A stretch of 64,000 nucleotides of DNA. It comes from a virus. Its lineage: Duplodnaviria > Caudoviricetes. The stretch spans positions 32,001 to 96,000 of IMG/VR virus record IMGVR_UViG_3300021256_000066. One strand, written 5' to 3'. Every line of letters begins with the position of its first letter. The stretch's first letter is position 1. The notes beneath the pieces were generated by a model that searched no databases, was not told the DNA's origin, and saw only the letters and a program-made list of their open reading frames with translations. Shown in pieces: positions 13,852-53,346 of the stretch. The translations under genes were made by a program, and so were the position numbers.

Positions 13852-13920
13852 TTACTAATTAATCCCTATTACAGAGAATCAGATAAAAAGAGTACAGAAC
13901 CATATAAAAAACATTGAGTT

Positions 13921-14148: not shown

Positions 14149-14204
14149 TTGCACCCCATACAGAGAGAGAAAAAAGAGTTATAAACAATTTAATCCGGTA
14201 AGTT

Positions 14205-14345: not shown

Positions 14346-14465
14346 AATCGGATTAGGGGCAAATATTGAACTTTGTGCGGATCGTAACCGTGTACCCCTA
14401 CAATTATAGAGTAATAGACAATTTAAAACCGAAACCCCAATGGCATATAATAGGGGATTAAGAAC

Positions 14466-14744: not shown

Positions 14745-14799
14745 TACCCCATACCCCTACATTATAGGCAATTTATAGAATCCCTAAAATATTGCAGAT

Positions 14800-15063: not shown

Positions 15064-15109
15064 TCCCTACATTATAGACATATTATAGAATCACTTAAAT
15101 ATTATAGAT

Positions 15110-15559
15110 ATGGCAAAGATTGATATTTCAAAAGAGAGTTTAGAGAGTTTTAGCCACAATAAAAATGTGTGTGGTATCTCTCAAAGTGAGGTGATCACAA
15201 AGAGAATGATTGCACCCATTGATGAGAAAAACGTTACATCCGATTGGATAGAGCAAATATTTGACGGATATAATTGTACCTATACAGAGGTAAAACGCAC
15301 ACACAAATATTGCGGTTTCGTTGGTGGTGAATTGGTGATGTGTTCTTACACCTTTGGCACAAATACCCTGCAATGGTGGATTGTTATACCCTCTTATGAT
15401 AGTGAAACCGCATACCATTACAATGAGAGATTGCAGAGAGTAAACTCTATCTTATTAGAGAGATTGCAAAAATTTGAGAATGATGAGAGTGATCTGTTTT
15501 CCTACATTGATAACAAAGGTTATTTGATTTATCAGGATTTCTATTTCAAAGGTGAGTAA
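15110..15559 (+). CDS. Hypothetical protein
   Basis: 149 aa, motif B leader. Confidence 0.75.
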   Translation: MAKIDISKESLESFSHNKNVCGISQSEVITKRMIAPIDEKNVTSDWIEQIFDGYNCTYTEVKRTHKYCGFVGGELVMCSYTFGTNTLQWWIVIPSYDSETAYHYNERLQRVNSILLERLQKFENDESDLFSYIDNKGYLIYQDFYFKGE

Positions 15560-15604
15560 TCCCACATTATAGGCATATTATAGAATCACTTAAAAATTAC
15601 AGAT

Positions 15605-15955
15605 ATGGCAAAGTTTACGATAGATTTAGACTATTTCGACATTAAGAGTAAATCTTTGGTTGGTGATATGTGTTTCTTCTTTGAAACCTCATTGGAAAAC
15701 TCTATTTGGTGTGAATCTGCAAAAGAGATGCAACAGAGTTTTGAGGATGGTTTCAATGGTGGTGATATTGGCAATGAGATCGAAAACCCAGAAATCCACA
15801 ATGTATGTGAGGTGGTAGATGAGTTTGGTATGATTGGGTATCCTAAAATCTCTAATATAGTTCTGCTGCAAAATCAGAGAGATTTAGAGAATCATATCCG
15901 GAAAATGGTTTCACAGAAATACCCACAATCGGAAATCAAAGTTTGGTATAAGTGA
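15605..15955 (+). CDS. Acidic hypothetical protein
   Basis: 116 aa, motif B leader. Confidence 0.75.
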   Translation: MAKFTIDLDYFDIKSKSLVGDMCFFFETSLENSIWCESAKEMQQSFEDGFNGGDIGNEIENPEIHNVCEVVDEFGMIGYPKISNIVLLQNQRDLENHIRKMVSQKYPQSEIKVWYK

Positions 15956-16033
15956 TACCCATTATAGAGAGTTTATAGAATCACAGATAAATTTAGAACC
16001 GAAACCCCAATGTGATAACAGGGGATTACGACA

Positions 16034-16303
16034 ATGAGTAAAACAGAGATTTTAAAGAATGCTTACAACCGCATAAAGAATGGCGAAACATTGGTATGTA
16101 ATGGGTGTGTAATGTGGAAATATTATGATCCGTTTGCAGGGCATAATGTAATAGAATGGCGCAATTTCGGACAAAGTGCAAACCGCATGAATTTCGACAA
16201 TTTCAAATGGATTGTAGAGGTGATCGCAAAGAGTATAGATTACATCTTTGAAACCCCACAAGAGTATGCACAAAGAAAGAACATACCATTGTATTTGGTT
16301 TAA
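16034..16303 (+). CDS. Hypothetical protein
   Basis: 89 aa, motifs B and A. Confidence 0.75.
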   Translation: MSKTEILKNAYNRIKNGETLVCNGCVMWKYYDPFAGHNVIEWRNFGQSANRMNFDNFKWIVEVIAKSIDYIFETPQEYAQRKNIPLYLV

Positions 16304-16389
16304 TATCTCTTTATAGGTATATAGAGAGTTTATAGAATCAGAGAATTATTAGAACCGAAACCACAATGTGATAATAGTGGATTACAAAG

Positions 16390-16851
16390 ATGGCAAAGAA
16401 TTTAGAGTTTATCAATGTATTAGAGGATTCTTACCCATTGTATGAGTATTGCAAAGAGAATGGTTTTACCGATTGTGAGGATTACGATGAGTGGTTTGAC
16501 AATGGTGGTGAGTTGAGTTTCTTTGAGGGTGATCCCGACATTATCAAAGTGAATGGTGAGATAGGTTATTTCTGCAAATGTGGTGATGTGGTTTTCTACT
16601 ACTTTGATGATTGTTTCACACATGATGCAGAACAGATACTCAAAGGTTTCTTTGCAGCATTCAATGTGGGTACTACCATTGGCGGTGAGAGTTGGATGAG
16701 TGGTGAGTTACCAAAGGGTGTGAGTGATGCAGCAGAGATACAGAATTGGGATGTGTGGGAAAAGATTAGATGCGGTATTGCATACAGAGGTGGTGCCGGA
16801 TATACCTACACTATACAGAGTTGGGGTAACTATTTGAGGTATGCAGCATAA
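16390..16851 (+). CDS. Acidic hypothetical protein
   Basis: 153 aa, motifs B and A. Confidence 0.75.
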   Translation: MAKNLEFINVLEDSYPLYEYCKENGFTDCEDYDEWFDNGGELSFFEGDPDIIKVNGEIGYFCKCGDVVFYYFDDCFTHDAEQILKGFFAAFNVGTTIGGESWMSGELPKGVSDAAEIQNWDVWEKIRCGIAYRGGAGYTYTIQSWGNYLRYAA

Positions 16852-16950
16852 CCCCATATTATAGACATTATAGGAAATCAGAGATATTACAGATAAACAA
16901 TTTAATTCATAAGAACCGAAACCACAATGTGATAATAGTGGATTACAGAG

Positions 16951-17637
16951 ATGAAGAACTATAAAGTAAAGTTATTCCATTTTGATGAGTTATCAGAGGA
17001 TGCAAAAGCAAAGGTGTGCGATAAGGAGAGAGAGAGTGATTATAACTTTGGCTATCTCTCACAAGAAACAGATGCAGAGGAAAGAATCGCCACATTGGAT
17101 AAGTTCTGTGAGGTATTTGGCATTAAGTATAATATAGATTACGATCATAATCACAGATTCATCGAATGGCATTTCCTGGATGTGGATATGAATGGGTATG
17201 ATTGGTGTGATGAGGATATAGAGGGTAAGTATCTGTTGAGATTTCTCAATCGCTACTACTTTGATATTCTCTCAAAGAAATACTACTCATGCAATCAGCA
17301 TTACGATGAGAATGGCAAATTCCATTACGCACACAGATATTCACGTTTTCAGTATGAGAGAGGTAATTGTCCTTTTACCGGAATGTGTTACGATTGCGAC
17401 ATATTGGATAAGATTTTTGAGTGGTATGACAAACCTAATTGGAAAATCTCTTTGCATGATCTCTTTGAGGATGTTTTCTCTCACTATATGAGTTTGTGGG
17501 AAAGTGAGGATGATTACCGCATGAGTGATGAACACATTTCCGACATGATTTCTGCTAATTGGGGTGATAAACTCTACTTTGAGGATGGTAGAGAGTTTAA
17601 CGGCAATGAGGATGATTTAGAACCGATTGCAGCATAA
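16951..17637 (+). CDS. Acidic phage protein of the FDELSEDAK type
   Basis: N-terminal KLFHFDELSEDAKAKV, CPFTGMCYDCDIL and C-terminal YFEDG resemble a widespread mobile-element family. Confidence 0.7.
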   Translation: MKNYKVKLFHFDELSEDAKAKVCDKERESDYNFGYLSQETDAEERIATLDKFCEVFGIKYNIDYDHNHRFIEWHFLDVDMNGYDWCDEDIEGKYLLRFLNRYYFDILSKKYYSCNQHYDENGKFHYAHRYSRFQYERGNCPFTGMCYDCDILDKIFEWYDKPNWKISLHDLFEDVFSHYMSLWESEDDYRMSDEHISDMISANWGDKLYFEDGREFNGNEDDLEPIAA

Positions 17638-17732
17638 TTATAGGGTAAGTGAGAAATTAAGCGATTACAAACGATTATAGATAGGAATTAGAACCGATCC
17701 CCGAATGTGTATATAAGAGTGGGTTTATAAAG

Positions 17733-18005
17733 ATGAAGAAAAACGATATTTACAGAGAGTTTCAAAGGATTGCAGCAGAGGTAGTGGGTGACAACCGCAA
17801 AGCTCAAAAGTATTATGTGATGCAGATGTGCGAACAGTTGGGTAAGGTGAACCACAAGAACCCATTTGTGATGTGGTGCAGCAGGAAAAGATGTATGGTG
17901 TATCAGAGTGGTATGGTAGAGAAACCTACACCAAAAAACTCACAGAATGGTGCATACTACCTTTTCCGCAATAACTCACAGAGTGCAGAGAGAGTATCTT
18001 TTTAA
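17733..18005 (+). CDS. Hypothetical protein
   Basis: 90 aa, diverged motif A. Confidence 0.7.
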   Translation: MKKNDIYREFQRIAAEVVGDNRKAQKYYVMQMCEQLGKVNHKNPFVMWCSRKRCMVYQSGMVEKPTPKNSQNGAYYLFRNNSQSAERVSF

Positions 18006-18063
18006 GTGAAGAGTGAATAGTGAAGAATTACATATTATAGAACCGGTAAAATATCACAGAATT

Positions 18064-18609
18064 ATGAACAATGATGTATATATGGTGGAATACAAAGGTA
18101 AGAAATTCCCCACAAGAGAGATTGAGATTGAACACTACATTAAGGGTATGGGTGTAGTAACTATTGCCGATTGGGAATTGTGGAAAACAATAGAGGATGA
18201 TTGCCGAAATGGGGATAGCAGAGCAACCGCAATCGACAATGGCATATTCTACTACTGCAATTCGGGAATGATAGCAAGCAATCCGTCTGATACAGAACTT
18301 ATCTACTCTGTATTGAGGGGTATGCACAATGAGGATGATTTTACGGATGAGTGGTGGTACAATCTAATGCGCAATGCAACCTTTGAGATTGCACAGATGC
18401 ACGAAAGAGGTGAGATCAACTGCAATGTAGAGGGTTATGAGTGTGGTGGTTATTATTCGGTGTATGGTTATAGTGATGGTGTGAATCACTCTCTTTATGA
18501 GGGTAAGAGTGCAAAGATGGCTGCAATGGCTGCAATGAGTGCAATCACCACCATCCGGCTGATGAACTATCCGTATTGGAGTATCACAGAGGGTGTAAGT
18601 ACATTATAG
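18064..18609 (+). CDS. Hypothetical protein
   Basis: ATG after AATATCACAGAATT leader. Confidence 0.7.
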   Translation: MNNDVYMVEYKGKKFPTREIEIEHYIKGMGVVTIADWELWKTIEDDCRNGDSRATAIDNGIFYYCNSGMIASNPSDTELIYSVLRGMHNEDDFTDEWWYNLMRNATFEIAQMHERGEINCNVEGYECGGYYSVYGYSDGVNHSLYEGKSAKMAAMAAMSAITTIRLMNYPYWSITEGVSTL

Positions 18610-18660
18610 AGTTTATAGGATATTAGAGATATTACAAACAATTTAATTCAGAATAAGATT

Positions 18661-19245
18661 ATGGCACAGAAATATTCGTTTAAGACAATGTGGATTGATG
18701 ATAAGGAAATGTTTTCAGTTTCATTGTTATGCAATGGTGAGGTGGTAGAAACTCACACATTCAAAGGACACCAGGATATGATGATGTGGATTTCGGACAC
18801 AATGGCAGGGTTGCAACTCTGTGGCGATGATTGGGAATTTGTATGCAAAGAGAGAACCTATATTGAGAAACCCAAAGACAATAACCTTGATGCGCTATTC
18901 AATAGTGTGGTGGAAAAGAGACAATCAGATTACGATAAGCGCAGAGCAGAGGGTAAGGCAAAGGAAAGAGAGTGGATGCAGAGAACACAAGAGTTTTTCG
19001 CAAAGATCGAGTTCTTAAATCAGTATGGTTTCGGTTTCCACATTTCAGAGGAAAAGGAAACTGGTTGCACCTCTTATCCCGATGAACATAGAATATATAT
19101 CCGTCCTTCAAAAACTCATGGGCGTATCAATGTAATGCCGAATGGTGACATACATTGCTCTTGCTATGTAGGCACTTACGACAAGACATTCAAGAGTGTA
19201 GAGGAATTTGTGAAAGCAATGGCAGAGTGTATCAGAATGAAGTAA
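18661..19245 (+). CDS. Hypothetical protein
   Basis: 194 aa, full motif B leader ending ACAATTTAATTCAGAATAAGATTATG. Confidence 0.75.
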   Translation: MAQKYSFKTMWIDDKEMFSVSLLCNGEVVETHTFKGHQDMMMWISDTMAGLQLCGDDWEFVCKERTYIEKPKDNNLDALFNSVVEKRQSDYDKRRAEGKAKEREWMQRTQEFFAKIEFLNQYGFGFHISEEKETGCTSYPDEHRIYIRPSKTHGRINVMPNGDIHCSCYVGTYDKTFKSVEEFVKAMAECIRMK

Positions 19246-19275
19246 CATTATATAACCGATTAAAATTCACAGACT

Positions 19276-19476
19276 ATGGCACAGAACAATATGCAATCAG
19301 ACGAGTTGGTAATCACTATCCGCATTACATTTGAGCATGACGGAAGAATGGGTGATCGGGATGAACGTAATGAGTATGTGGCTGCAAAGGTGATTGGCGA
19401 TGCGCTATCGCACACCCACACCATTGAGAACGGCATACAGATACACGACATCGAGAATTGTGGTGAGAATTGGTAA
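19276..19476 (+). CDS. Hypothetical protein
   Basis: 66 aa in array. Confidence 0.65.
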   Translation: MAQNNMQSDELVITIRITFEHDGRMGDRDERNEYVAAKVIGDALSHTHTIENGIQIHDIENCGENW

Positions 19477-19537
19477 CATTATAGACATTATAGGAAATCA
19501 GAGTAATTAACGAATTAAACAATAGGAGAATTAAGTT

Positions 19538-20410
19538 ATGGCAAAAGAGATTAGTGTTTGTAAGGTAGATATGGGTAGAAACATTGAAAAACCCACAAAG
19601 GTGAATAGGTTTAAGAATTTCTGTACCTACTGCAAAGTACCCACAATAGGTTGGGGCAAGCCATTCTATGCAATCATGCAGGGTAAGTTGAGGGCAGTAA
19701 AGTTCATTCGTATTGAATACTACACCTACAATACCTTTAACAACACAGATAGTTTGGAGTGTAAGTTTGCAGTAATCTATCTTGATGTGGCAGGAATTGG
19801 TGAGGTGAAAGTTTCAGCACACTATTGGTACGACATTCCATTCTCTATCTTTGAGAGTGTAGAGGATTTCAGAAACAATGTGGAGTACGATGTTAGTCAC
19901 GATGCAGGTGAGGTACACCTTTTAGATATGCTGCATGATGTTGCAAATGGTAGGCAGATGTTTAAGCATATTAGTGCAGGAGAGAATGATACCCTATTGC
20001 AGTTTGTGTGGGATGCAGCAAAGTGTGAGGTGAGAACCGCTTACACAGAGATACCCTCATGTATCAGTTACACAGAGAGAGAGGGTTTCTATACCAAAGA
20101 GAAATGGGTATTAGGCAATGGCAGATTTGCCACAAGAGAGGATTGTGAGAATGCCAACAATGTAGAGGTGGTGGAGTTTGAGGACGATCCTACTCACATT
20201 GAAAAGGATTTGCGCAAGCAGATTCGTACTGAAGTAATGCGTACCTTTGCTGATTGGCTAACTGCATCCGACATTGAGAATATGGCAGAGAGTATCATTG
20301 ATGATTGTGTTGAGGATGTTAAGGTATGCAGCGACTACCCACACTACAATGATGATGATGTGCGTATTGCCATTCAGAGGGTAATTCTTAACAGAGTGGT
20401 TGGTGAGTAA
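19538..20410 (+). CDS. Hypothetical protein
   Basis: 290 aa, motif B leader. Confidence 0.75.
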   Translation: MAKEISVCKVDMGRNIEKPTKVNRFKNFCTYCKVPTIGWGKPFYAIMQGKLRAVKFIRIEYYTYNTFNNTDSLECKFAVIYLDVAGIGEVKVSAHYWYDIPFSIFESVEDFRNNVEYDVSHDAGEVHLLDMLHDVANGRQMFKHISAGENDTLLQFVWDAAKCEVRTAYTEIPSCISYTEREGFYTKEKWVLGNGRFATREDCENANNVEVVEFEDDPTHIEKDLRKQIRTEVMRTFADWLTASDIENMAESIIDDCVEDVKVCSDYPHYNDDDVRIAIQRVILNRVVGE

Positions 20411-20488
20411 TCTTATTATAGAGTTTATAGGATATTAGAGATACAATTCAGAACCGAAACCGCAATGCGATAATGGCGGAGTAAGACA

Positions 20489-21190
20489 ATGAAAGAGAAT
20501 ATTGCAGTATTGTTGGCAGAGAGGAACGATTTGGTGGAGAAGTTCAACAAGCGTAAGGACTATGCAGTCCAGGGTACGCAGGACAGAATGGATGAGATTT
20601 GCCGGCAGATAGACAGTCTGATGACAGAGGACAACTCCATTGAGGTGACTTTTTTAGAGTATGGTGTGGTGAGGTACACACAATCACAGATTGATGAGTT
20701 GAAAGCAAAGGGAGTGGATTTATTTCGCTATACGAAGAAAGCAGACGGGATGTACGATCATACGGAGAAGATACTCAAGCAGGGCAGGGTGATACTCTCT
20801 GATAATGACGAGAAGAATCGGTTTTTTCTCTTCTGCATTGGCTACCACAAGTATTTGGATGAGTACACTCCATTCTACCATATCCATGATCACTATCCCT
20901 GCTATCCCCACAAGATACAAAACTCTCTTGACATCTATGAGGGTACATACAAGAATCAGTTTGTGGATGATTTTGTCTATACGACTGCAAACGGAGAGTT
21001 GGCAATCAAGTATGGCAATAAGAGAGTGGATAGTTGGAATACCGCATACAACTGCGTATTGACTACCTCTATTCATGCCAACCTATTCAGCATTAGTCCT
21101 GCATTGATAAGCAAGAACCGCAAAGAGGTGCAGCGTTATGAGGGCAACCGATGGTATCACACTAACCGCATGATTGGGAGTTATCAGTAA
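20489..21190 (+). CDS. Hypothetical protein
   Basis: 233 aa, motifs B and A (CCGC/GCGG variant). Confidence 0.75.
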   Translation: MKENIAVLLAERNDLVEKFNKRKDYAVQGTQDRMDEICRQIDSLMTEDNSIEVTFLEYGVVRYTQSQIDELKAKGVDLFRYTKKADGMYDHTEKILKQGRVILSDNDEKNRFFLFCIGYHKYLDEYTPFYHIHDHYPCYPHKIQNSLDIYEGTYKNQFVDDFVYTTANGELAIKYGNKRVDSWNTAYNCVLTTSIHANLFSISPALISKNRKEVQRYEGNRWYHTNRMIGSYQ

Positions 21191-21319
21191 ACATATTATA
21201 GACATTATAGGAAATCAGAGTAATAACAACTTTTCGATTAAGCGAGTAAAATCAAATGTATTTGAATTGTCGAGCGTGAGAAAAGTCAAACGAAGTTTAA
21301 TTTAATTCAGAATAAGATT

Positions 21320-22051
21320 ATGGTACAGATTGAAAAGATAGACGGAATGTATAAGTGGGATTTGAACCGCATGGTGGATGATTGCTCAAAGAGGATTGGC
21401 GATAATGGCTACTTTGGCAGTTGGCACAAGATTCAGATAGACGGAAAGCAGACGATGGTGTATTGCGATGATAGGGATGCACTCTGCTTTACTGCAATCA
21501 ATGAGTGGTTTGACGAGGTGGTAGTGTTGGAATGGAGTGGTGACTATCGTTGGAATAGCGACAAACCCGCAATCGTAAGGAATGGCGATAAGTTCAATAT
21601 AGTGGAATGTCCCAAAGGTGGAATGTATAATAGCAGCAAGAAAATGCGCTTGCTCTGTGATGTGTGGTTTGAGTTAGTGGGTGATCCCAAATGGAAGTTT
21701 GACGATGAGCTGCATACCTACTGCATCATGGCAAAGATAGATGGCAATGTGGTGAAGATTACCAAAGAGGGTAGCATTGTAGAGGGAAACCCTCAAGAAC
21801 TGATGGCAGAGGTTAGCCATTATAGCATGGATGAGATATTAGAGAAGTGGATTCGTGCAGGCAAACGCTGCATCTATCGTGAGGGATGGGCATACAGAGG
21901 TGCAAAGTCAAAGGTTATCAGCAATGAGGATGCAGAGAGAATGTTACCTCAATACCATTTCGGCAAAGGATTCTATGAGTTGCGTTGGACGATGGATGAT
22001 GGCAAGGTAGCATTGGAGTTCAATGAACTATCAGTATTGGATATGGAGTAA
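21320..22051 (+). CDS. Hypothetical protein
   Basis: 243 aa, motif B leader with inserted palindromic repeat. Confidence 0.75.
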   Translation: MVQIEKIDGMYKWDLNRMVDDCSKRIGDNGYFGSWHKIQIDGKQTMVYCDDRDALCFTAINEWFDEVVVLEWSGDYRWNSDKPAIVRNGDKFNIVECPKGGMYNSSKKMRLLCDVWFELVGDPKWKFDDELHTYCIMAKIDGNVVKITKEGSIVEGNPQELMAEVSHYSMDEILEKWIRAGKRCIYREGWAYRGAKSKVISNEDAERMLPQYHFGKGFYELRWTMDDGKVALEFNELSVLDME

Positions 22052-22112
22052 CCCTTTATAGCGAGTGTAAGAAATCAGAGTAGAAACAATTAAAGTATAG
22101 GAGAAACAAGTT

Positions 22113-22880
22113 ATGATTATCAATATTGAGTTTACAACCGCAAGAGGTTACAAGTATGAGACGATGCGCACAGAGTTTGACCGCAACTATCGGGATGAGG
22201 AACAGGCATTGATCTTCGTGGAGAGCGAGGAGGATGATTTCAATGGCTACTTTGAGGTGAACATCCGCAAGGACAAGCAGGGCAAGGCTATCAGCGAGGG
22301 TTATGTGTGCGAGTATGCAAGCACAGAGGATAGCGACCCACAGACTATCTATGAGGATGCGAAGATTGAGGTCAAGCTGCATGACTTTGACGATGTGTTG
22401 GAGTTGGCTAATGCGGAACTGTGGCAGGATGATTTGCAGATTGTGTTGGAGTACGATGGTGAGTGTTATTGGGCTATCGGCACAGAGATTAAGGCTACAA
22501 AGGAAATTAAGTGGTATGTATCGGCAGACTTTGAGAACGAGGTGCGAGGGCATATCTATGAGTGTTGGGCACACGCAAGGGCTATGGCAAAGGAATTGGC
22601 AAAGACTGACGATAAACCGAAGATGTGGTGTGTGACTTATGTGGGTTTGTCGGATTCGGAGTACAAGGCTAATGGCTATTCAGAGGTTGCTCTGTATGCC
22701 ACAAAGGATGCAGCGAAAGCGAAACTGAAAGCATGGCGAGACAACGAGATTGCGGAACTGAAAGAGCAGGAACGTGACTATGAGATATTGGAAGATGAGG
22801 ACGATGAGTGCCGTATCAGTTGGTGCGGACATGGTGAGCAAATCCGCATTGAGGTACACGAAGTGGAGTTGAATAAGTAA
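22113..22880 (+). CDS. Highly acidic hypothetical protein
   Basis: 255 aa, D/E-rich. Confidence 0.75.
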   Translation: MIINIEFTTARGYKYETMRTEFDRNYRDEEQALIFVESEEDDFNGYFEVNIRKDKQGKAISEGYVCEYASTEDSDPQTIYEDAKIEVKLHDFDDVLELANAELWQDDLQIVLEYDGECYWAIGTEIKATKEIKWYVSADFENEVRGHIYECWAHARAMAKELAKTDDKPKMWCVTYVGLSDSEYKANGYSEVALYATKDAAKAKLKAWRDNEIAELKEQERDYEILEDEDDECRISWCGHGEQIRIEVHEVELNK

Positions 22881-22946
22881 ACCCCTACATATTATATACA
22901 TTATAGAATATTACAGAAATCAGCAACAATTTAATTCAGAAAGATT

Positions 22947-23495
22947 ATGAAGAAAGAGATTATTTTGGCAGTAGCCAATCAGATACAGAACATGATGTAT
23001 AACGACATTACTTGTGAGTATGGAGTGGAGAGTTTTGAGAGTTGGTGCAACGATGGTGAGGTGTTTGAGAACGAGGGTATGGATGCAGCCGATGTGAAAG
23101 AGTGTATGCAGTTGGTTAAGGTGGTTGCTCCATTGGTGGATAACTTGGTGATGAACAACCTCAATATCGACAATCCCGAAGTGGCGGTTGCGAAGAAAGA
23201 GTATGTGGTGCGGTCTATCTCATGGGATGATAAGTTGAATGCTATTATAGAGGCTGCGAGAAATGAGGGATTTGCCGAAGAGGTGGAGGATATAGACTTG
23301 CTCTCATATATCAAGGTGAACGACAAAGGAGAGAAAGAAACCTTTGAGGAACGTTTCGACTATATCGACACTACCACCATTCCGATATCTGTTCACTTTA
23401 TCTGTGGCACCGGCTATGAGAACTATTCCGTACCTATCGGATGGCTGACAGACGAGAGTATTGATAAACTCTATGAGTGCGTGATAAACAAGTAA
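22947..23495 (+). CDS. Acidic hypothetical protein
   Basis: 182 aa, motif B leader. Confidence 0.75.
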   Translation: MKKEIILAVANQIQNMMYNDITCEYGVESFESWCNDGEVFENEGMDAADVKECMQLVKVVAPLVDNLVMNNLNIDNPEVAVAKKEYVVRSISWDDKLNAIIEAARNEGFAEEVEDIDLLSYIKVNDKGEKETFEERFDYIDTTTIPISVHFICGTGYENYSVPIGWLTDESIDKLYECVINK

Positions 23496-23563
23496 TCACC
23501 TTTTATATATTATAGTGAGATTATAGGATTTAGTGAGAAATTAAAAGTATAGGAGATAAGATT

Positions 23564-23788
23564 ATGGGATGGATTAAAACACCAACGAAATCGAGCGAGG
23601 AAATCTTCAGCGAGATTGTCAAAGACAGACCGACTTGGAACGGACGGATTGGCGATAGCACAACACCATACGAATATTGGAGTGACTGGCTGCGTGATAA
23701 CTATGACCTCACAATAAAGCAAGCTGACGAGGTTTGCAGAGGACTTAAAGAGTATTACCATATAGAGCATTTCTATTATGGAGAGTGA
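23564..23788 (+). CDS. Hypothetical protein
   Basis: 74 aa in array. Confidence 0.7.
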   Translation: MGWIKTPTKSSEEIFSEIVKDRPTWNGRIGDSTTPYEYWSDWLRDNYDLTIKQADEVCRGLKEYYHIEHFYYGE

Positions 23789-23826
23789 GAAAAATCAGAG
23801 AAATAACAATTTAATTCAGTAAGATT

Positions 23827-24396
23827 ATGGATAAGACGAATAATACGATGTATTCAAAGGGTATGGTTGATAACATGATTGTGAGCGGTACTGCGGAGAA
23901 CCGCAAAGTGTTGAACGGCACAAACTATCAGTTTGACGAGATGGGCGAGTGCGAGATAGAGATGCGTTTCTTTGACGGATTGGCGGTGGCTACTGACGAT
24001 AGCGGAGTGGTGGTGCGCTATCCTAAGTTGAGCGAGGTGCAGGGGTCTGTAAAGATGCAGCAGGCTATCTACCGACATACGGGATTGAACTGCGCGAGTC
24101 AGTTTGATGTGGCTCTGACCTTTGGCAAGGCTGACCGCTATAAGATGGTGGCTGACTACGACATTTGGCGGTTGCAGGGCGACAACGAGGACTTGGATAT
24201 TACCGCTATACATTCTGCTGACGGAAAGTTTCTGTTTGATGTGTTGGAGGATGACTATGAGGAAATGATGAATGCTGACATCGTGGAGGATGGCTATCTG
24301 TGTGGGCAGCCTACTGACGAGCAGATCAAAGAGTGGCAGGCTAAGTATGGCATTCTGTGGACGGAGAACTTTACTAAGGAGTTGGTGGGTGCTTAA
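23827..24396 (+). CDS. Acidic hypothetical protein
   Basis: 189 aa, ACAATTTAATTCAGTAAGATTATG leader. Confidence 0.75.
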   Translation: MDKTNNTMYSKGMVDNMIVSGTAENRKVLNGTNYQFDEMGECEIEMRFFDGLAVATDDSGVVVRYPKLSEVQGSVKMQQAIYRHTGLNCASQFDVALTFGKADRYKMVADYDIWRLQGDNEDLDITAIHSADGKFLFDVLEDDYEEMMNADIVEDGYLCGQPTDEQIKEWQAKYGILWTENFTKELVGA

Positions 24397-24426
24397 CATT
24401 ATAAACTATATAGGAGATTAAGGACT

Positions 24427-24648
24427 ATGGTACATTTGGAGAGGAAGAATCCCGAAGTGAGGGAACATCTGACTGACGAGGGAGTGCAGATCGTGATGGA
24501 CGCTCTGTTGCACGAAATGGAGCGATACAACAAGGCAATGGACTTGGTGACGTACGGGAACGCACGTCATGCTATCGACTATGCGAAGAAAAAGGTTTAT
24601 CGGGTTTATCAAGTGATGAACAACCTTATGCCCGAAGATAAGGGGTGA
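24427..24648 (+). CDS. Hypothetical protein
   Basis: 73 aa in array. Confidence 0.7.
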   Translation: MVHLERKNPEVREHLTDEGVQIVMDALLHEMERYNKAMDLVTYGNARHAIDYAKKKVYRVYQVMNNLMPEDKG

Positions 24649-24705
24649 CACCACATTATAGACAATCGGAAATATCACAGAAGTTTAATTTAATTCAGTA
24701 AGATT

Positions 24706-25332
24706 ATGAGTACAAGAGCAACGATTAAGATCAAGCAGAGTTTCTATAACACAGACGAGGATTACGACAAGGGCATACTGACACCTTACGAAATCGAGTT
24801 GTATCACCATTCAGACGGATATCCCAAAGGCATTGGGGCGGACATCGTGGAGTTCCTACGCAACAGAAACGATGGCTACGACACCGACAAACCGATATGG
24901 GAAGCTGAACGCATAGCAACGGACATGGTGAGGGGTGAGGTGCTGACGAGCAAGTCGTTGAGCGAGCCAAAGGATGTGCATCGGGATATGGGCTACGATG
25001 TGGCTATCTGTCAGCATGGCGACTGCGTGTATGGCTATCTGATAGACTGCGATGAGCGCAAGGTGACGTGCTACGATATAGAGCCAGGGCAAGAGGATTG
25101 GACGGATGACTGCATTGTGGAGATACCCGACACTTGGGCGCAGTTTGGCGGTCTGCATCTCCCCGAAGAGACGGACGGACTGAAGAAGTTTAGCGAGGCT
25201 ACCGCAGTACAGAAAGCGGAGTGGCTGCTTGAGGTGGCAGAGGAGTGCAAGGTGAAACATCCCGATCTGGAGTGGGACGACATCATCAGCCGTGCCAAAG
25301 AGCGACTGGCAGAGGCAAAGGGAGAGAAATAG
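24706..25332 (+). CDS. Conserved phage protein of the MSTR...YxHxDGYP type
   Basis: MSTRATI...LYHHSDGYPKGIG...HGDCVYGYLID. Confidence 0.75.
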   Translation: MSTRATIKIKQSFYNTDEDYDKGILTPYEIELYHHSDGYPKGIGADIVEFLRNRNDGYDTDKPIWEAERIATDMVRGEVLTSKSLSEPKDVHRDMGYDVAICQHGDCVYGYLIDCDERKVTCYDIEPGQEDWTDDCIVEIPDTWAQFGGLHLPEETDGLKKFSEATAVQKAEWLLEVAEECKVKHPDLEWDDIISRAKERLAEAKGEK

Positions 25333-27264: not shown

Positions 27265-27332
27265 TTTTTGAAACCAATTTTTGTATAATTTCTGCGCGAC
27301 AGCGCATCAAAAAAAAATAGGAGAAACGAATT

Positions 27333-37621: not shown

Positions 37622-37951
37622 ATGAAACAGACGACGGAAACAAATTACAAGCATTTCTACACCAAGGGCAACACCGACTACTTCATCACGAAGGAGGGCA
37701 CGGTGCTGAGCGCAAGCGACCCTGACAGCGACCCGCAGACGTGGCGCGAGATAGCCACCTATAACGGCAAGGGCTACCGCCGCGTCAGGCTGCAGGGTAA
37801 GACGTTCAAGGTACACCGCCTCGTGGCAGAGGCCTTCGTGCCGAACCCCTACAGCCTGCCAAACGTGCTCCACAAGGACGGCGATCGTGAGAACAATCAC
37901 TACACCAACCTGGAGTGGAGCTCACGCCAGAGTAATCATCCACGAGCATGA
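37622..37951 (+). CDS. HNH endonuclease (HNH_3 type)
   Basis: VHRLVAEAFVPNP...VLHKDGDRENNHYTNLEW. Confidence 0.9.
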   Translation: MKQTTETNYKHFYTKGNTDYFITKEGTVLSASDPDSDPQTWREIATYNGKGYRRVRLQGKTFKVHRLVAEAFVPNPYSLPNVLHKDGDRENNHYTNLEWSSRQSNHPRA

Positions 37952-38097
37952 CTGACCGACCGATGATACTGGGGCGGTACAGCCCGAGCCAGAACGGCAT
38001 AGTGGTAAGTCCATCGGGGATTGCCCTGTGCCTTGCATGGGGGGGTAACGGGCACGACACCGATAAACCGAAAATACTGATAGAGTATGATATTTAG
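37948..38097 (+). CDS. MTase variable-region-like module 1 (G7 at 38039-38045, in frame)
   Basis: MTDRPMILGRYSPSQNGIVVSPSGIALCLAWGGNGHDTDKPKILIEYDI. Confidence 0.7.
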   Translation: MTDRPMILGRYSPSQNGIVVSPSGIALCLAWGGNGHDTDKPKILIEYDI

Positions 38098-38275
38098 AGT
38101 GACCAATACTGCGCAGCCGAAGCCGATACGGGGGGGGCAAATCAGAGCAGTCAACACGACGGGCGACCTGTGTGCCGCCACGCTTACCACGAGATACGAT
38201 GCCGTCGGCCCTACGAATATAATTACGCTGGCACACTATCCGATGACCGTAATACTGATAGAGTATGAAATGTAG
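38087..38275 (+). CDS. Module 2 (G8 at 38130-38137, in frame)
   Basis: KPIRGG..VNT..ATLTTRYD..TLAHYPMTVILIEYEM; paralog of module 12. Confidence 0.7.
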   Translation: MIFRVTNTAQPKPIRGGQIRAVNTTGDLCAATLTTRYDAVGPTNIITLAHYPMTVILIEYEM

Positions 38276-38418
38276 TGGAATAATAAGAATAGGCAACCTC
38301 TTCTACGACAGTTTCCGCAGTGGATTCGACGGAAACGTTCAGGGCTGTATGGGTGTCACTCAGACGGTCTTGGCTGCCAACGGGGGGGGTATATCTTGGT
38401 AGAATATGACAACCTATA
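38265..38418 (+). pseudogene. Module 3 (G8 at 38382-38389, frameshifted; G9 restores YILVEYD end)
   Basis: MKCSGIIRIGNLFYDSFRSGFDGNVQGCMGVTQTVLAANGGG, then premature TAG. Confidence 0.65.
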
Positions 38419-38588
38419 AGGCAATCGGCTGGACGCGCAGCGGCAACGGCAGGGGCGATGTGGACCGCTACCACCTCCGCGACATCTCCAACACCATCAC
38501 CTCGTTCTGTGGGGGGGGTATTGGGAAGGATTCTGCCACCGGCATGTATAACACCACACCGTATATACTCGTAGAATATGAACTATAA
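38406..38588 (+). CDS. Module 4 (G8 at 38511-38518, in frame)
   Basis: DISNTITSFCGGG...NTTPYILVEYEL. Confidence 0.7.
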   Translation: MTTYKAIGWTRSGNGRGDVDRYHLRDISNTITSFCGGGIGKDSATGMYNTTPYILVEYEL

Positions 38589-38773
38589 CAACTCGCGACT
38601 GAACGCGATGATCATGGGGGGGGCAATGGGAGCCGAACTACCACGGCGAGATGCTCGACACCTACAACCAGCAGGCACACCGCCACACGGCGATCACCAT
38701 ACTGGCAGGCATATCGTCGCGCAACCACTACTTCGTGTGTGAAGAACGTTTACCATCAAAACTTAGAAAATAT
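38578..38773 (+). pseudogene. Module 5, continuous with the MTase frame but frameshifted at G8 (38616-38623)
   Basis: With G7 or G10: MNYNNSRLNAMIMGGQWEPNYHGEMLDTYNQQAH...NHYFV continuing into the MTase. Confidence 0.65.
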
Positions 38774-40246
38774 ATGATTGCAAAAATTTATCCTGACGGG
38801 CACCCTGACTTGCAGGGAAAGAAAGACCCTACGCACCCAGTGCGCTATTTCGACATCCGAAAACTCACTCCACGCGAGTGCTATTCACTGATGGGCGTGC
38901 CGCCGCAGCAGATCGACACGCTGATGAAAACCGAAAAGAGACCATATATGGCATGGGTGGGCGTAGATGCCGAACTGGCTGTGTTTGGACTGGAGCCGAG
39001 TGCCACGCGCCGCGAGGTGGATGAAGCATATCGCGAGGCTATCGAGAGCCTGAATAACCAGGCAGCTGACGATGCAGACGCACAGGAAGAAACCGACGAA
39101 GATACCGCACGGCTGATGGCAGAGAAGCCCGAAGACAATGCCGAGGAAACCGCGCTGATGCGACAGAACTACGAGATGAACTATCAGCGCATCATCGCTG
39201 CCAGTCAGGAGCAGCGTTACGGTGACGTGCAGATTATTGCCAACTCATCGCATTACAAGCTGGCGGGTAACTCCATCGTCTGCGACGTACTGATGTATAT
39301 CTACGAGGAATTGCTCTACCCCACGTACCGCCGACTGCCGCAGGAGCAGACCGACCTATTCGCCCAGCCACAGTTCCGCTTGACCCGAGACTGGAAGAAA
39401 GAGCCGCTGAAGTTGGTAACACTTTGCAGCGGTTACGACAGTCAGGCAATCGCTATGGATATGCTGCAACAGCGATATCCGGACTTCCGATGGGAACTGA
39501 AGGCATGGAGCGAGTTCGACCCCGAGAGCAGCCGACCATTGGAAGAGCAGCCCGCCATAGTGGCCCATAATCTGCTGTTCCCACAATACAAGGATTTGAA
39601 CCGGGGCGACATGACCAAGGCTGATTGGAGCGACCTCGCCGATGCAGGTATCGACCTGCTGACATATAGCACTCCGTGTCAGTCCATCTCACAGGCTGGC
39701 AAGCGAGAGGGTATCAAGAAAGGTAGTGGCACTCGCAGTGCCGTACTTTGGAGTACCGAAGAAGCTGTTCGCCAGATGCGACCGAAGGTGCTGCTGCAGG
39801 AGAACGTGCGGGCGCTTATCAACAGCGTGAACATGCCCGACTTCAAGGAGTGGTGCAGTCTGCTGGAGAGCCACGGCTACGTGAACTTCCTCGCGCCCTC
39901 GTTCCCGACGGTCTGGGGCACCGACAAGCGCGACAAGAAGACCGTGCCGGGCATCCTGAACGCCAAGCACTACGGCGTGCCACAGAACCGCGAAAGGGTG
40001 TATATGGTCTCCGTGCGTGCCGACATGCTCGGCGGCACGCAGTACGAGTTTCCACGTCCTTTCCCGCTCGACAAGTGCATCGCCGACGTGCTGGAGGACA
40101 ATGTGGACGAGCGCTTCTTCCTAAAGCCCGACTCGGTGATCAAGTTCCTCACCGTCAACGAACAGACCGACGGCAGCGACATACACTATATGGTAACGGA
40201 CCACAAACTGAGTGATGAGGAAATCAGACGTGCAAGAGGTGAATAG
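38651..40246 (+). CDS. Circularly permuted C5-cytosine DNA methyltransferase (motif order IX-X-I...VIII); alternative start at 38774
   Basis: IRKLTPRECYSLMG (IX), YKLAGNSIV (X), TLCSGYDSQ (I), YSTPCQSISQAG (IV), LQENVRAL (VI), GVPQNRERVY (VIII). Confidence 0.93.
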   Translation: MLDTYNQQAHRHTAITILAGISSRNHYFVCEERLPSKLRKYMIAKIYPDGHPDLQGKKDPTHPVRYFDIRKLTPRECYSLMGVPPQQIDTLMKTEKRPYMAWVGVDAELAVFGLEPSATRREVDEAYREAIESLNNQAADDADAQEETDEDTARLMAEKPEDNAEETALMRQNYEMNYQRIIAASQEQRYGDVQIIANSSHYKLAGNSIVCDVLMYIYEELLYPTYRRLPQEQTDLFAQPQFRLTRDWKKEPLKLVTLCSGYDSQAIAMDMLQQRYPDFRWELKAWSEFDPESSRPLEEQPAIVAHNLLFPQYKDLNRGDMTKADWSDLADAGIDLLTYSTPCQSISQAGKREGIKKGSGTRSAVLWSTEEAVRQMRPKVLLQENVRALINSVNMPDFKEWCSLLESHGYVNFLAPSFPTVWGTDKRDKKTVPGILNAKHYGVPQNRERVYMVSVRADMLGGTQYEFPRPFPLDKCIADVLEDNVDERFFLKPDSVIKFLTVNEQTDGSDIHYMVTDHKLSDEEIRRARGE

Positions 40247-40378
40247 GGGGGGCAAATCGGCGGTTGCTACTGGAAACAGAAGGACGGCTATGTGCGCCGT
40301 CCGCTCTGGGGACTGTCCCGCACGCTGAAAGGCGATGGCAATCATCCTGCAGGAATAATCATTGAGTATGAATTATGA
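40215..40378 (+). pseudogene. Module 6 (G7 at 40246-40252, frameshifted; G8 restores). Its 3' part is in frame with the MTase behind the TAG
   Basis: GGQIGGCYWKQKDGYVRRPLWGLSRTLKGDGNHPAGIIIEYEL. Confidence 0.65.
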
Positions 40379-40509
40379 AACAGACACCGAGAGCGTGCAT
40401 CTACTACAACTTGTCGCTGATGTATAACGACGGCATGAAGTGGGACTTGGTGGCCAAGACGGTCATCGGCGACACGCATCCACAAGCGCTATTGATAGAG
40501 TATGAGTAG
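40375..40509 (+). CDS. Module 7 (no tract)
   Basis: MKQTPRACIYYNLSLMYNDGMKWDLVAKTVIGDTHPQALLIEYE. Confidence 0.65.
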   Translation: MKQTPRACIYYNLSLMYNDGMKWDLVAKTVIGDTHPQALLIEYE

Positions 40510-40702
40510 CATTACCCCCCCCATATTGCGGCAAGTCCCTGTTCGGCGAGTGCGGACGGAGTGGGCAAAAGCCGTCAGGCGGCAGACTGGTACCAACCCT
40601 TTTCAGGCCAAGCAACTGGAGGAGTTTGTGTCGGACTACATGCCTACCATCACCGCCAGCGCAAACATCGAGAACTATATCAAAGTAGAATATGAAATAT
40701 AG
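40502..40702 (+). CDS. Module 8 (C8 at 40515-40522, in frame)
   Basis: RTEWAKAVRR...MPTITASANIENYIKVEYEI. Confidence 0.7.
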   Translation: MSSITPPILRQVPVRRVRTEWAKAVRRQTGTNPFQAKQLEEFVSDYMPTITASANIENYIKVEYEI

Positions 40703-40864
40703 AATACAGACAACAAGCACCATGCCGATATACGAAGGCCACCTGGTAAAACCCGGATGGCACCACAAGGCTTGTGAGGTGCTGAATGTGGGGGGGTATC
40801 GACATGTATTCACACCCAGAGCAACAATCTGCTTCAAAAAATCATCATAGAGTATGAGTTATGA
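40692..40864 (+). pseudogene. Module 9 (G7 at 40790-40796, frameshifted; G8 restores)
   Basis: With G8: ...EVLNVGGVSTCIHTQSNNLLQKIIIEYEL. Confidence 0.65.
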
Positions 40865-41024
40865 AACCAATTAGTTATAAACTTGGAGTCCACATCGTAG
40901 GTCATCGCCTGGAGTGGAAAGGTGGGGGGGTATTGAGAGTAATATGTGGAAGAACATCTGCCCTTGCATCCGTATGAACGATTACAAATGTCCAATGAAT
41001 TGTCTGATAGAGTATGACGATTAA
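40861..41024 (+). pseudogene. Module 10 (G7 at 40924-40930, frameshifted; G8 restores)
   Basis: With G8: ...GGGGIESNMWKNICPCIRMNDYKCPMNCLIEYDD. Confidence 0.65.
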
Positions 41025-41162
41025 GACGCGATATATCAACTGCAACTGCGACAATACGGTCAAGTCGATACTGGCCGGATGTTACAAGTTCGGTGCTGCC
41101 ACTCTGCTTAGGGGGGGCAAGCCAGTATGACATCGGTATTGTTTGAATATGAATACGATTAA
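41014..41162 (+). pseudogene. Module 11 (G7 at 41111-41117, frameshifted; G8 restores)
   Basis: With G8: ...TVKSILAGCYKFGAATLLRGGQASMTSVLFEYEYD. Confidence 0.65.
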
Positions 41163-41349
41163 ACTGCGACAGACCACATCGGCCACGGCCAAGCCTATAC
41201 GGGGGGGGTACTTCCTGCCCGTCAACACAGCATCAGGAGGTGTCGCTTGCACGCTCAACACCCGCTACGACGGCATGCAGCTGCCAGAAGACATCCTCAC
41301 GCTGGCCCATTACCCCAAGACCGTCGTGCTCAGAGAGTATCATTTATGA
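41149..41349 (+). CDS. Module 12 (G8 at 41201-41208, in frame)
   Basis: KPIRGG..VNT..ACTLNTRYD..TLAHYPKTVVLREYHL; paralog of module 2. Confidence 0.7.
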   Translation: MNTIKLRQTTSATAKPIRGGYFLPVNTASGGVACTLNTRYDGMQLPEDILTLAHYPKTVVLREYHL

Positions 41350-41461
41350 AGGACGAATCAACAGCAGTCAGGACGGCATCGTCATCAGCGCCCGAGGCAT
41401 TGCCCTCACCCATACCGCTGGTCACGGCAATTGCCCGAAGATATTGATAGAATATGAGTGA
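41339..41461 (+). pseudogene. Module 13 (ATC where the junction ATG is expected; no tract)
   Basis: IIYEGRINSSQDGIVISARGIALTHTAGHGNCPKILIEYE; paralog of module 1. Confidence 0.6.
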
Positions 41462-41708
41462 AGCGAAACGATACAGCACAGCAGGTCGCCCGTTCCTTGA
41501 AATCGCCACGAGGGGGGGGCAGACCGTACTGCGAATCCGACAAGCCACCGAACAGGGCTATATCGAGTGCGACCCGCAGGGTGTCTGCGACCTTGCCTAC
41601 CCGGAGAGCGAACTGCGCCGTGCCCGTGTCAAGGACCGAGGCCGCGTCTGCGGAACGCTGATGAGCGACAATCAGCAGTTCTGCGTCTTCATCGAACATG
41701 ACATATAG
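41454..41708 (+). CDS. Module 14 (G8 at 41512-41519, in frame)
   Basis: IRQATEQGYIEC...DLAYPESELRRARV...CGTL resembles the ATKKGY...PNSKTRRGRV segment of phage C5-MTase variable regions. Confidence 0.75.
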   Translation: MSEAKRYSTAGRPFLEIATRGGQTVLRIRQATEQGYIECDPQGVCDLAYPESELRRARVKDRGRVCGTLMSDNQQFCVFIEHDI

Positions 41709-53135: not shown

Positions 53136-53346
53136 ATGGCAAAGAAAGTATTTCTCGGAAATGGACTAAGCCGCACGGCGATGGTGTTCAAGATTGCGAC
53201 GCTGGCAGGACATAAGCTGACAGTGCCTGAAATGAACCGCATCAAAGATATCAACCCCCGCGCCCTGGAGCGAGTCTATGACTCCGTATTGGGGGGGGGT
53301 AAGTAAGGGCGACGCGCTGTTTGCACTCAGACTTGTATTGAAATAA
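53136..53346 (+). CDS. Small protein truncated at a G9 tract (stop at 53306; G8 would extend it to 53346)
   Basis: MAKKVFLGNG...VYDSVLGGGK* versus ...LGGVSKGDALFALRLVLK*. Confidence 0.55.

Follow-up and report, generated by a model that had tools for sequence, protein, structure and literature searches.

An open reading frame in the window, here the whole 64,000-nucleotide stretch of viral DNA that was analysed, encodes a C5 DNA methyltransferase (MTase) that is circularly permuted, with motifs IX and X preceding motifs I to VIII. We give a probability of roughly 0.6 to the reading that this enzyme serves as the catalytic core in a modular, multispecific C5-MTase encoded by the phage, with its recognition domains (TRDs) supplied in trans. 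The permutation is confirmed, and the absence of a recognition segment from the chain, the TRD homology of small modules surrounding it, selection on these modules and polymorphism in the length of their homopolymer tracts are established as well. The locus lies in a 129.5-kb virus record with tape measure, HNH, helicase and integrase genes.

Motif order and the missing recognition segment

The features of the MTase gene are as follows:
38651..40246, plus strand: C5-MTase ORF as first drawn, 531 aa, in the order IX, acidic insert, X, I, IV, VI, VIII, 82-aa tail
38915..39238, plus strand: acidic variable insertion separating motif IX from motif X, ~105 aa, D+E content 24%
38774..40246, plus strand: probable core ORF, 490 aa, beginning MIAKIYPDG, a start shared with about half of the family
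38578..38773, plus strand: N-terminal TRD module with a 9-aa linker, own ATG at 38578 and a G8 tract at 38616-38623

Translation of the ORF as first drawn places motif IX (RKLTPREC) at residues 70-77 (window 38858-38881) and motif X (GNSI) at residues 206-209 (window 39266-39277). These are followed by the motif I position (CSGYDS, residues 259-264), motif IV (PCQ, 342-344), motif VI (ENV, 384-386) and motif VIII (QNRER, 445-449). The order of motifs given in the preliminary description was thus borne out, while the tail behind motif VIII counts 82 residues instead of about 70. The same ORF matches Pfam DNA_methylase (PF00145) at E=1.3e-37, the best stretch beginning at profile position 42, and TIGR00675 dcm at 1.3e-34 (120 bits versus a cut-off of 100.65). 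At the position aligned to FxGxG, the putative AdoMet-binding motif I reads LCSGYDS, in which only the first G is kept; this form is invariant across the family. Alignment to M.HhaI, proposed earlier as a check together with the Pfam family, was performed with phmmer and paired MTase residues 69-85 with HhaI 271-287 (motif IX, RxLTxxE), residues 198-218 with HhaI 295-315 (motif X) and residues 315-494 with HhaI 55-210. Because these HhaI blocks align in permuted order, the permutation is real and not a chance match of motifs. The acidic insertion between IX and X is absent from the compact relatives L015 and P0271.

Both by sequence and by predicted fold, the MTase chain spans M.HhaI 1-236 and 271-315, and no stretch of it matches HhaI ~237-270, the site of the recognition loops. 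Structure prediction, also suggested at the outset, agreed with this for a relative: the AF2 model of compact P0271 (pLDDT 83.8) superposes, from residue 1 onwards, on HhaI 1-236/237 only (Z 17-19), the recognition-loop segment being missing. The model of the 555-aa relative P0003, made from a shallow alignment, was poor (pLDDT 60), and the fused N-terminal TRD was modelled at pLDDT <50 in both proteins. Because of the permutation, motifs IX, X and I to VIII lie in one chain and the position of the recognition loops falls at the chain ends.

As a separate observation, GGQ and T-L motifs of the modules described below may correspond to Gln237 and Thr250-Leu251 of HhaI, a likeness that leans on the structural end-point at HhaI 236/237 and not on an alignment.

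TRD-like modules, tracts and junctions

About 14 TRD-like modules of 44-84 aa lie on both sides of the core, and 7 of the 14 are out of frame as assembled. Apart from the N-terminal module listed above, the locus comprises:
37948..38097, plus strand: U1, TRD mini-ORF, G7 at 38039, in frame, local phmmer match to a multi-TRD protein
38087..38275, plus strand: U2, in frame, RGGQ motif encoded by the G8 tract at 38130
38265..38419, plus strand: U3, G8 at 38382, out of frame, stop at 38402
38406..38588, plus strand: U4, G8 at 38511, in frame
40215..40378, plus strand: D1, ATG within the MTase 3' end, G7 at 40246-40252, out of frame, restored by G8
40375..40509, plus strand: D2, no tract, in frame
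40502..40702, plus strand: D3, C8 at 40515, in frame
40692..40864, plus strand: D4, G7 at 40790, out of frame, restored by +1
40861..41024, plus strand: D5, G7 at 40924, out of frame, restored by +1
41014..41162, plus strand: D6, G7 at 41111, out of frame, restored by +1
41149..41349, plus strand: D7, G8 at 41201, in frame
41336..41461, plus strand: D8, without ATG or tract of its own, read from the D7 ATG with G7 at 41201
41454..41708, plus strand: D9, G8 at 41512, in frame, homologous to the TRD between VIII and IX of canonical C5-MTases
38080..41460, plus strand: junction cores GARTATGA, eleven copies with the consensus (A/G)TAGA(G/A)TATGA, and at 41335 a variant junction that closes D7

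Eleven of the twelve tracts of at least seven G in the whole window, plus a C8, are found within 38039-41519, which makes 12 tracts in the ~3.5-3.7 kb of the module locus. Of the 46 modules that bear a tract, 13 can be read in frame as they stand; of the other 33, 28 regain the frame through a change of ±1 at the tract. U3 with G9 would regain a ..GGGYILVEYDNL ending, and this module type is in frame in L009. The first G of the D1 tract is the G of the TAG stop of the MTase. The route from the D7 ATG into D8 forms an open alternative frame of 102 codons; D8 is read from this ATG at G7, and D7 and D8 therefore constitute a toggle, an arrangement that recurs in L001, L005 and L006.

Comparison of related loci revealed that tract length is polymorphic. 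All seven 1-2-nt indels in array and MTase of L008 and L009, which are 96.8% identical, fall at tracts, and length differences were also found for L001 compared with L005 and L006. Frameshifts between near-identical loci occur only at G/C tracts and are reversed in sister loci. The tract lengths were read from metagenome assemblies, not from reads. A sequencing artefact was considered and rejected, since independent assemblies have the tracts at identical codons and since 11 of 12 tracts within 3.5 kb is no error pattern. When metagenome contigs were scanned for the exact pattern around tract 38616, no match was obtained.

Successive modules are separated by the junction, which in frame 0 is read as (I/V)-E-Y-(E/D) followed by a stop, in frame +1 yields TAG and then the next ATG, and in frame +2 yields TGA. 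All three frames are stopped at 62 of 103 junctions, compared to 1.5% of random positions. The all-frame-stop junction with its ATG is kept across loci down to 55% core identity.

Free or fused modules

The core more likely begins at ATG 38774 than at ATG 38651. The 40 nt upstream of ATG 38774 have an A+T content of 68%, versus 44% in the gene, and I54 and A55 are invariant in the family alignment. MIAK is the exact start of 99 of 193 family proteins; TRD-less ORFs begin MIAKI(Y/F)P, and the core-only ORF is the commonest form in the family. In L020 and L021 the core and the preceding TRD mini-ORF share a junction: the mini-ORF ends in it, and the ATG of this junction starts the core.

The first 32 residues of the ORF from ATG 38651 correspond to the C-terminal two thirds of the N-terminal TRD module, and at the G8 tract they are one base off the frame of ATG 38578. 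As assembled, with G8, this module does not share the frame of the core and runs into a stop at 38742. A G7 tract at 38616 joins it to the core in frame, in a protein of 555 aa; only in the G7 or G10 state does a TRD precede motif IX in the same chain. Relatives of 555 aa exist, and the N-terminus of P0002 is identical to the G7 reading. P0271 bears a different module type at its N-terminus, and a single N-terminal module type is found throughout the close clade. The enzyme, described earlier as having no internal TRD, is not simply devoid of one: in the G7 state it bears an N-terminal TRD (cf. P0002).

In the model proposed here, the permuted chain would comprise all but the two DNA-recognition loops, its C- and N-termini flanking the empty loop position, and the loops would be encoded by the ~14 small TRD modules on both sides of the core. 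The module directly upstream would be fused N-terminally at G7 instead of G8. Each module would be translated alone, from an ATG inside a junction stopping all three frames, and slippage in G7-G9 (or C8) tracts would put most of them in or out of frame. In-frame modules may bind the core non-covalently and one at a time, each guiding methylation to a target sequence of its own; the DNA of phage progeny or of a lysogen would then bear one pattern out of many, a bet-hedge against host restriction systems. Comparative data support the supply of TRDs by separate ORFs, and we infer that these act in trans. The more specific proposal, that the core accepts any of a dozen free 44-84-aa mini-proteins as recognition loops, each switched independently by its tract in a miniature of the Type I arrangement, is narrowly favoured.

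The suggestion in the preliminary description that permutation frees the TRD to be supplied by separate ORFs agrees with the presence of all motifs in one chain, with the TRD-less relatives and with the arrays. Supply in trans is our interpretation of these data, and an engineered split has failed: permuted M.MpeI and M.SssI, split into large- and small-domain pieces, showed no activity in vivo (PMC5944983). In that split motif IX was left on the small piece, whereas the window core keeps IX on the catalytic chain. The inactivity of the engineered split would fit a reading in which only covalently attached TRDs work. The enzyme would then be an ordinary Type-H MTase whose adjoining upstream module is fused to it by recombination, by the state of the tract or by a +1 shift at the junction, and the other mini-ORFs would be spare cassettes, moved over evolutionary time. 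The fused forms mentioned above (555-aa relatives, and P0271 with its different N-terminal module) are as expected from this, and a +1 shift would fuse neighbouring modules, each following ATG being in the +1 frame relative to the module before it. Module order also differs among phages, types found upstream in one occurring downstream in another, and the chimeric module P0123 suggests recombination. However, silent cassettes need no ATG of their own, no all-frame-stop junction and no individual tracts. Downstream modules are equally conserved, yet their N-terminal fusion requires rearrangement, and the constancy of the N-terminal module type in the close clade indicates that cassettes are not often swapped in. 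Together with the predominance of core-only ORFs, this renders an exclusively covalent mechanism unlikely.

Supply in trans by free modules draws also on the homology of the modules and on their constant neighbourhood to the core. A search with D9 matched 373 proteins, including stand-alone proteins of 70-117 aa and, at the VIII-IX interval, full-length canonical MTases (e.g. P0148, residues 220-274). Seven further modules match separate positions in tandem multi-TRD proteins, and D6 matches a TRD position in P0221 at 3.7e-11. Single-chain relatives with tandem TRDs of the same types were found in P0140, P0143 and P0231. Stand-alone N-type modules occurred in 2 clusters only in a short-query search. 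PDB sequence searches with the single modules D9, U1 and U2 and with a 7-sequence U1/D8-type profile returned no methyltransferase match, and curated families returned none for the mini-ORFs, which are too small. TRD mini-ORFs adjoin the permuted core in each of the 23 related loci whose flanking DNA extends far enough, and they lie beside the core in 6 of 6 loci reached via core-only proteins. The co-occurrence of permuted homologues and mini-ORF arrays that had been put forward as a check was thus found; since arrays adjoin the core in all of these loci, permuted homologues lacking them were not encountered there. A search of genome contigs yielded one true relative only, in a Prevotellaceae rumen MAG, and GenBank phage records contain no close relative, the best match covering 65% at <46% identity.

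The mini-proteins might instead be made without guiding the MTase, for example as decoys or regulators that bind DNA or host restriction enzymes. That they are too small for any curated-family match leaves room for such a role. It is nevertheless regarded as very improbable, given that the modules are homologous to TRDs working inside C5-MTases, that arrays adjoin the permuted core wherever a related locus has sufficient flanking DNA, and that the core is without exactly the segment that the modules resemble.

The module pairs that could be compared show purifying selection, with a pooled dN/dS of ~0.17 over 89 pairs (pS 0.5-0.9), a ratio biased downwards by pre-selection of pairs at ≥60% amino acid identity; the D3 module and its L003 copy share 94% amino acid identity at pS 0.43. 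Decay of a frameshift-broken tandem multi-TRD MTase into mini-ORFs, with the core inactive or served only by its own N-terminal module, would account for the tandem single-chain relatives with the same TRD types and for the 7 of 14 modules out of frame in the window, but it was rejected as most improbable on module selection (this dN/dS at near-saturated synonymous sites) and junction conservation (ATG and all-frame stop kept down to 55% core identity), and likewise frameshifts occur at tracts only, reversed in sister loci, and the array of L015, which has no tracts, is fully intact.

Significance and comparison with known systems

The textbook C5-MTase is a monomer with the recognition domain inside its chain. 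If the model of free modules is true, exchangeable specificity subunits would be seen for the first time in a C5-MTase, here one from a family of roughly 7,500 members, with thousands in gut and rumen viromes. At least one tract would toggle two modules, and one phage lineage could sample thousands of methylation patterns, a combinatorial bet-hedging mechanism for epigenetic arms races between phage and host. Prediction of m5C specificity from sequence would change, as pipelines would annotate a specificity-less core and overlook the mini-ORFs, and a large unannotated class of small phage ORFs would be explained. An old question, by what means a multispecific MTase presents its TRDs singly, would become directly testable. 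The system would also offer a natural scaffold for programmable cytosine methylation, given that engineered split or permuted MTases have proved hard to get working.

No description of a permuted core with an array of TRD mini-ORFs was found in the literature or in curated families. The topology of the permutation itself is already known from the M.BssHII group. Natural permutation is not confined to M.BssHII, as had first been supposed: a 2018 listing gives 27 REBASE entries, in all of which the permutation falls in the variable region, and Type H members include M.BssHII, M.Alw26I, M2.Eco31IC, M.Esp3I and M2.BsaI (PMC5944983). Type H enzymes and the window MTase have in common that IX and X precede I to VIII and that the chain ends lie in the variable region, a likeness of topology. 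At G7 the window MTase reads TRD-IX-X-I..VIII, exactly the Type H order. In Type H, however, the TRD is in the chain and provides one specificity, whereas the commonest form in the window family is a TRD-less core flanked by many TRD genes.

Multispecific C5-MTases are described for the Bacillus temperate phages SPR, phi3T and rho11s (Trautner et al. 1996, cited in PMC12707154). They share with the window system that they are phage-encoded, provide each core with several independent TRDs of ~40-60 aa and presumably give protection from many restriction systems. The SPR-type TRDs lie in one polypeptide between VIII and IX and are always co-expressed, whereas the window TRDs are separate ORFs with a switch of their own, ended by all-frame-stop junctions, and their core is permuted.

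The activity of split C5-MTases such as M.AquI (alpha/beta) and M.EcoHK31I is assembled from two or more polypeptides. In M.AquI the break falls between VIII and the TRD, so that the second chain bears TRD, IX and X; in the window system IX and X remain on the catalytic chain and the recognition part alone is separate, with many alternative partners. Phase-variable MTases of bacteria (Type III mod and Type I hsdS phasevarions) are switched by simple sequence repeats. Like these, the window locus has coding homopolymer tracts, length differences among close relatives and on/off control by frame. Phasevarions switch one adenine methylase or shuffle hsdS halves, whereas in the window locus up to 12 tracts within 3.7 kb would turn specificity modules of a cytosine-5 methylase on and off, one module per tract. 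The likeness to Type I HsdS is conceptual: a catalytic methylase takes its DNA specificity from a separate, exchangeable protein. A large scaffold with two TRDs, HsdS is unrelated in fold and enzyme class to the window modules; these are mini-proteins of 44-84 aa and would make the small domain of a monomeric C5-MTase complete.

Permuted methyltransferase core

The features on which the analysis rests are the following.
37622-37951: HNH endonuclease ORF (PHROG 59, 1e-26), its stop overlapping the ATG of the first TRD module
38578 (ATG) to 38742 (stop), + strand: N-terminal target recognition domain (TRD) module, with a G8 tract at 38616-38623, out of frame by one base
38651-40246, + strand: C5-methyltransferase (MTase) ORF, 531 aa
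residues 70-77 of this ORF: motif IX, RKLTPREC
residues 206-209: motif X, GNSI
residues 259-264: motif I position, CSGYDS
residues 342-344: motif IV, PCQ
residues 384-386: motif VI, ENV
residues 445-449: motif VIII, QNRER

The product of 38651-40246 matches Pfam PF00145 (E=1.3e-37) and TIGR00675 (120 bits) and is, judged by sequence, a DNA cytosine-5 methyltransferase. The preliminary description placed motifs IX and X ahead of I-VIII. This order is borne out by the motif positions and by phmmer alignment with the canonical M.HhaI, in which ORF residues 69-85 and 198-218 correspond to HhaI 271-287 and 295-315, and residues 315-494 to HhaI 55-210; on these alignments the protein is truly circularly permuted. 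Motifs IX and X are separated by an acidic, variable insertion of ~105 residues that compact relatives lack, and the tail beyond motif VIII counts 82 residues instead of the ~70 given earlier. Some core relatives of 717-743 aa (P0295, P0299, P0302, P0305, P0310, P0318 and P0332) carry intein and LAGLIDADG domains (PF14890, PF13403, PF14528) within the methylase. Two relatives, P0019 and P0024, otherwise 83-88% identical, have 50-100 extra residues after GDMTK(I)DW, ahead of motif IV.

A structure model of P0271, a compact relative lacking the acidic insert (pLDDT 83.8; residues 53-427 confident), found M.HhaI, M.MpeI and M.HaeIII as best Foldseek matches and superposed on M.HhaI from residue 1 to 236/237 (Z 17-19, rmsd about 2.9 Å). 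Combined with the alignment of motifs IX and X on HhaI 271-315, the model indicates that the MTase chain spans all of HhaI except roughly 237-270, the segment of the two recognition loops (Gln237; Thr250-Leu251). PDB titles among the Foldseek matches mention Q237 and T250 mutants. The claim that the chain has no internal TRD is therefore right in substance, and a permuted core without recognition segment is established; the two ends of the chain would flank the recognition part.

Residues 1-32 of the ORF drawn from 38651 are the tail of the N-terminal module. A G7 tract at 38616 joins this module through a 9-residue linker to the core, giving a protein of 555 aa with the order TRD-IX-X-I..VIII; some relatives have exactly this length, and one relative, P0002, has an N-terminus identical to the G7 reading. 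The linker has 68% A+T versus 44% for the gene, and its last residue is the Met opening MIAKIYPDG, which is exactly where 99 of 193 family proteins start. With the tract as assembled, the core probably starts at ATG 38774. The earlier view of a TRD-less core had the architecture right and overlooked this N-terminal TRD, conditional on G7 at 38616.

Mini-ORF array and related loci

Beside the core lie 13 further mini-ORFs on the same strand, at 37948-38588 (U1-U4, upstream) and 40215-41708 (D1-D9, downstream), each with the C-terminal ending hydrophobic-x-hydrophobic-E-Y-(E/D). The junction consensus, (A/G)TAGA(G/A)TATGA, combines the start codon (ATG) of the following ORF with stops in two frames, TAG in +1 and TGA in +2; a frame-0 stop comes within a few codons. 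All three frames are stopped within 30 nt at 62 of 103 junctions (16 loci), compared to 1.5% of random positions. At 40244-40378 the G of the MTase TAG stop is the first G of a G7 tract, and the TRD part of D1 keeps to the MTase frame over the 43 codons that follow this stop. In relatives such as P0088 the core C-terminus reads through the tract (..VRQGGHIAG).

Searching with D9 (84 aa) among 1.8 billion representatives matched 373 proteins, including stand-alone proteins of 70-117 aa, tandem multi-TRD proteins (e.g. P0140, P0143) and the VIII-IX interval of full-length canonical C5-MTases, e.g. residues 220-274 of P0148, in which Pfam coverage spans the whole protein. In local searches U1, U3, U4, D1, D5, D6 and D8 each matched a separate position in multi-TRD proteins; P0231 has D5 at 189-223, D9 at 367-423 and D1 at 441-476. 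In the PHROG 16427 profile D9 corresponds to positions 61-106 and core motif IX to 111-137. The modules have no family of their own in Pfam, PHROG or NCBIfam. Pooled module dN/dS was 0.17 (89 pairs from different loci, pS 0.5-0.9), a ratio biased downwards because pairs were pre-selected at at least 60% amino acid identity; the peptides are kept though synonymous sites are near saturation. It is established that these mini-genes are TRD-homologous, under selection and separately startable. One D9 match, P0123 (89 aa), is a chimera of a U1-type N-half and a D9-type C-half joined at Gly-Gly, a sequence that suggests recombination between modules at G tracts.

The core family is large (>6,800 matches in one search, 7,589 in another). 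Loci were examined in 16 viral contigs, one rumen MAG of the Prevotellaceae and another 7 contigs; L017, which holds part of the gene only, was left out of locus parsing. The proposed co-occurrence of permuted core and mini-ORF arrays held wherever a locus had sufficient flanking DNA: TRD mini-ORFs sharing this junction flank the core on one side or on both, and no permuted homologue without an array was found among these loci. Module types recur in altered order and on either side of the core. In two loci (L020, L021) the MIAKIYP ATG is the ATG of the junction closing the preceding module, and the core is the next ORF of the array. In locus L015 and for P0271 another module type is fused N-terminally, followed by five intact tract-free mini-ORFs.

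The window is taken from a virus record of 129.5 kb (bases 32001-96000) and also encodes a tape measure protein, a helicase and an integrase. No restriction endonuclease was seen adjoining the array in the window. Locus L025 has an HNH_3 gene immediately upstream of its array; the HNH gene may be a homing element tied to the array. At 13000-25000 lies a 12-kb island of 35-43% G+C (about 55% elsewhere) with strong G-over-C skew (+0.2 to +0.33) and roughly a dozen ORFs (150-290 aa) in a single orientation, of which the ten tested had no Pfam match.

Homopolymer tracts and reading frames

Eleven of the 12 G tracts of at least 7 nt in the window, and one C8, fall in 38039-41519. Tracts are present in 12 of 14 modules, the N-terminal one counted; D2 and D8 lack one. 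As assembled, U1, U2, U4, D2, D3, D7 and D9 are in frame, while U3, the N-terminal module, D1, D4, D5 and D6 are out of frame, and a one-base difference in its own tract brings each back into frame. D8 has no ATG of its own. The tract at 41201-41208 (within 41149-41461) gives D7 as G8, and as G7 it reads from the ATG of D7 into D8 via a 102-codon open alternative frame, so that it appears to toggle between the two modules; this layout is preserved in L001, L005 and L006.

Between the sister loci L008 and L009 (96.8% identical) all seven 1-2-nt indels in the array and MTase gene sit at G/C tracts, and L001, L005 and L006 behave likewise. A census of 46 tract-bearing modules lying between consecutive junctions in 20 loci found 13 in frame, mostly G8, and 28 out of frame (G7 or G9) and restored by ±1 at the tract; 5 were unresolved. 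That tract-length polymorphism sets the frame of the mini-genes is established. In L001 and L004-L009 a C7-C10 tract within the motif IX codons (RKLTPPEC = ACC CCC CCC), at around +100 to +250 relative to the start of the MTase match, differs in length between sister loci and would turn the whole core on or off as a master switch; RKLTPREC of the window lacks it. Outside the array, a G9 and an A9 tract (53291-53299 and 27309-27317) may be further slippage sites.

Proposed mechanism and known systems

In the proposed mechanism, in-frame modules would dock non-covalently between the two termini of the core, one at a time, each conferring one target sequence. Mixed tract states would diversify phage DNA methylation against the restriction systems of hosts, and perhaps also against methylation-dependent ones. 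Permutation makes a two-piece design possible; canonical order with the TRD excised would yield three pieces. We give this mechanism as a whole a probability of roughly 60%. Permuted M.MpeI and M.SssI, supplied as large-domain and small-domain fragments with motif IX on the small one, showed no activity in E. coli (PMC5944983), which is evidence against the trans step. The main alternative, that only fused modules function and the array is a reservoir, seems unlikely to us, as modules have their own start codons, junctions are frame-proof, tracts are individual to modules and downstream modules are conserved. Of the preliminary description, the permuted MTase is confirmed. Its interpretation of TRDs supplied by modules is partly supported: architecture and co-occurrence stand, the account of the N-terminal TRD and of the commonness of the topology was incomplete, and action in trans is what we infer.

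Literature searches found no published description of a core with switched TRD genes, and the GenBank phage collection held no close relative. Natural permutation, described earlier as rare, extends from M.BssHII to 26 further enzymes in REBASE, all with chain ends in the variable region: M.Alw26I, M2.Eco31IC, M.Esp3I, M2.BsaI and 22 more (PMC5944983). None of these combines a TRD-free core with separate, individually switched TRD genes. Multispecific Bacillus phage MTases array several TRDs within one polypeptide (PMC12707154), whereas here the TRDs appear as separate ORFs, most with a tract of their own.

In M.AquI the split falls between VIII and the TRD, and homopolymer phase variation is known for Type I and Type III methylases; neither has the TRD-less core with individually switched TRD genes found here.
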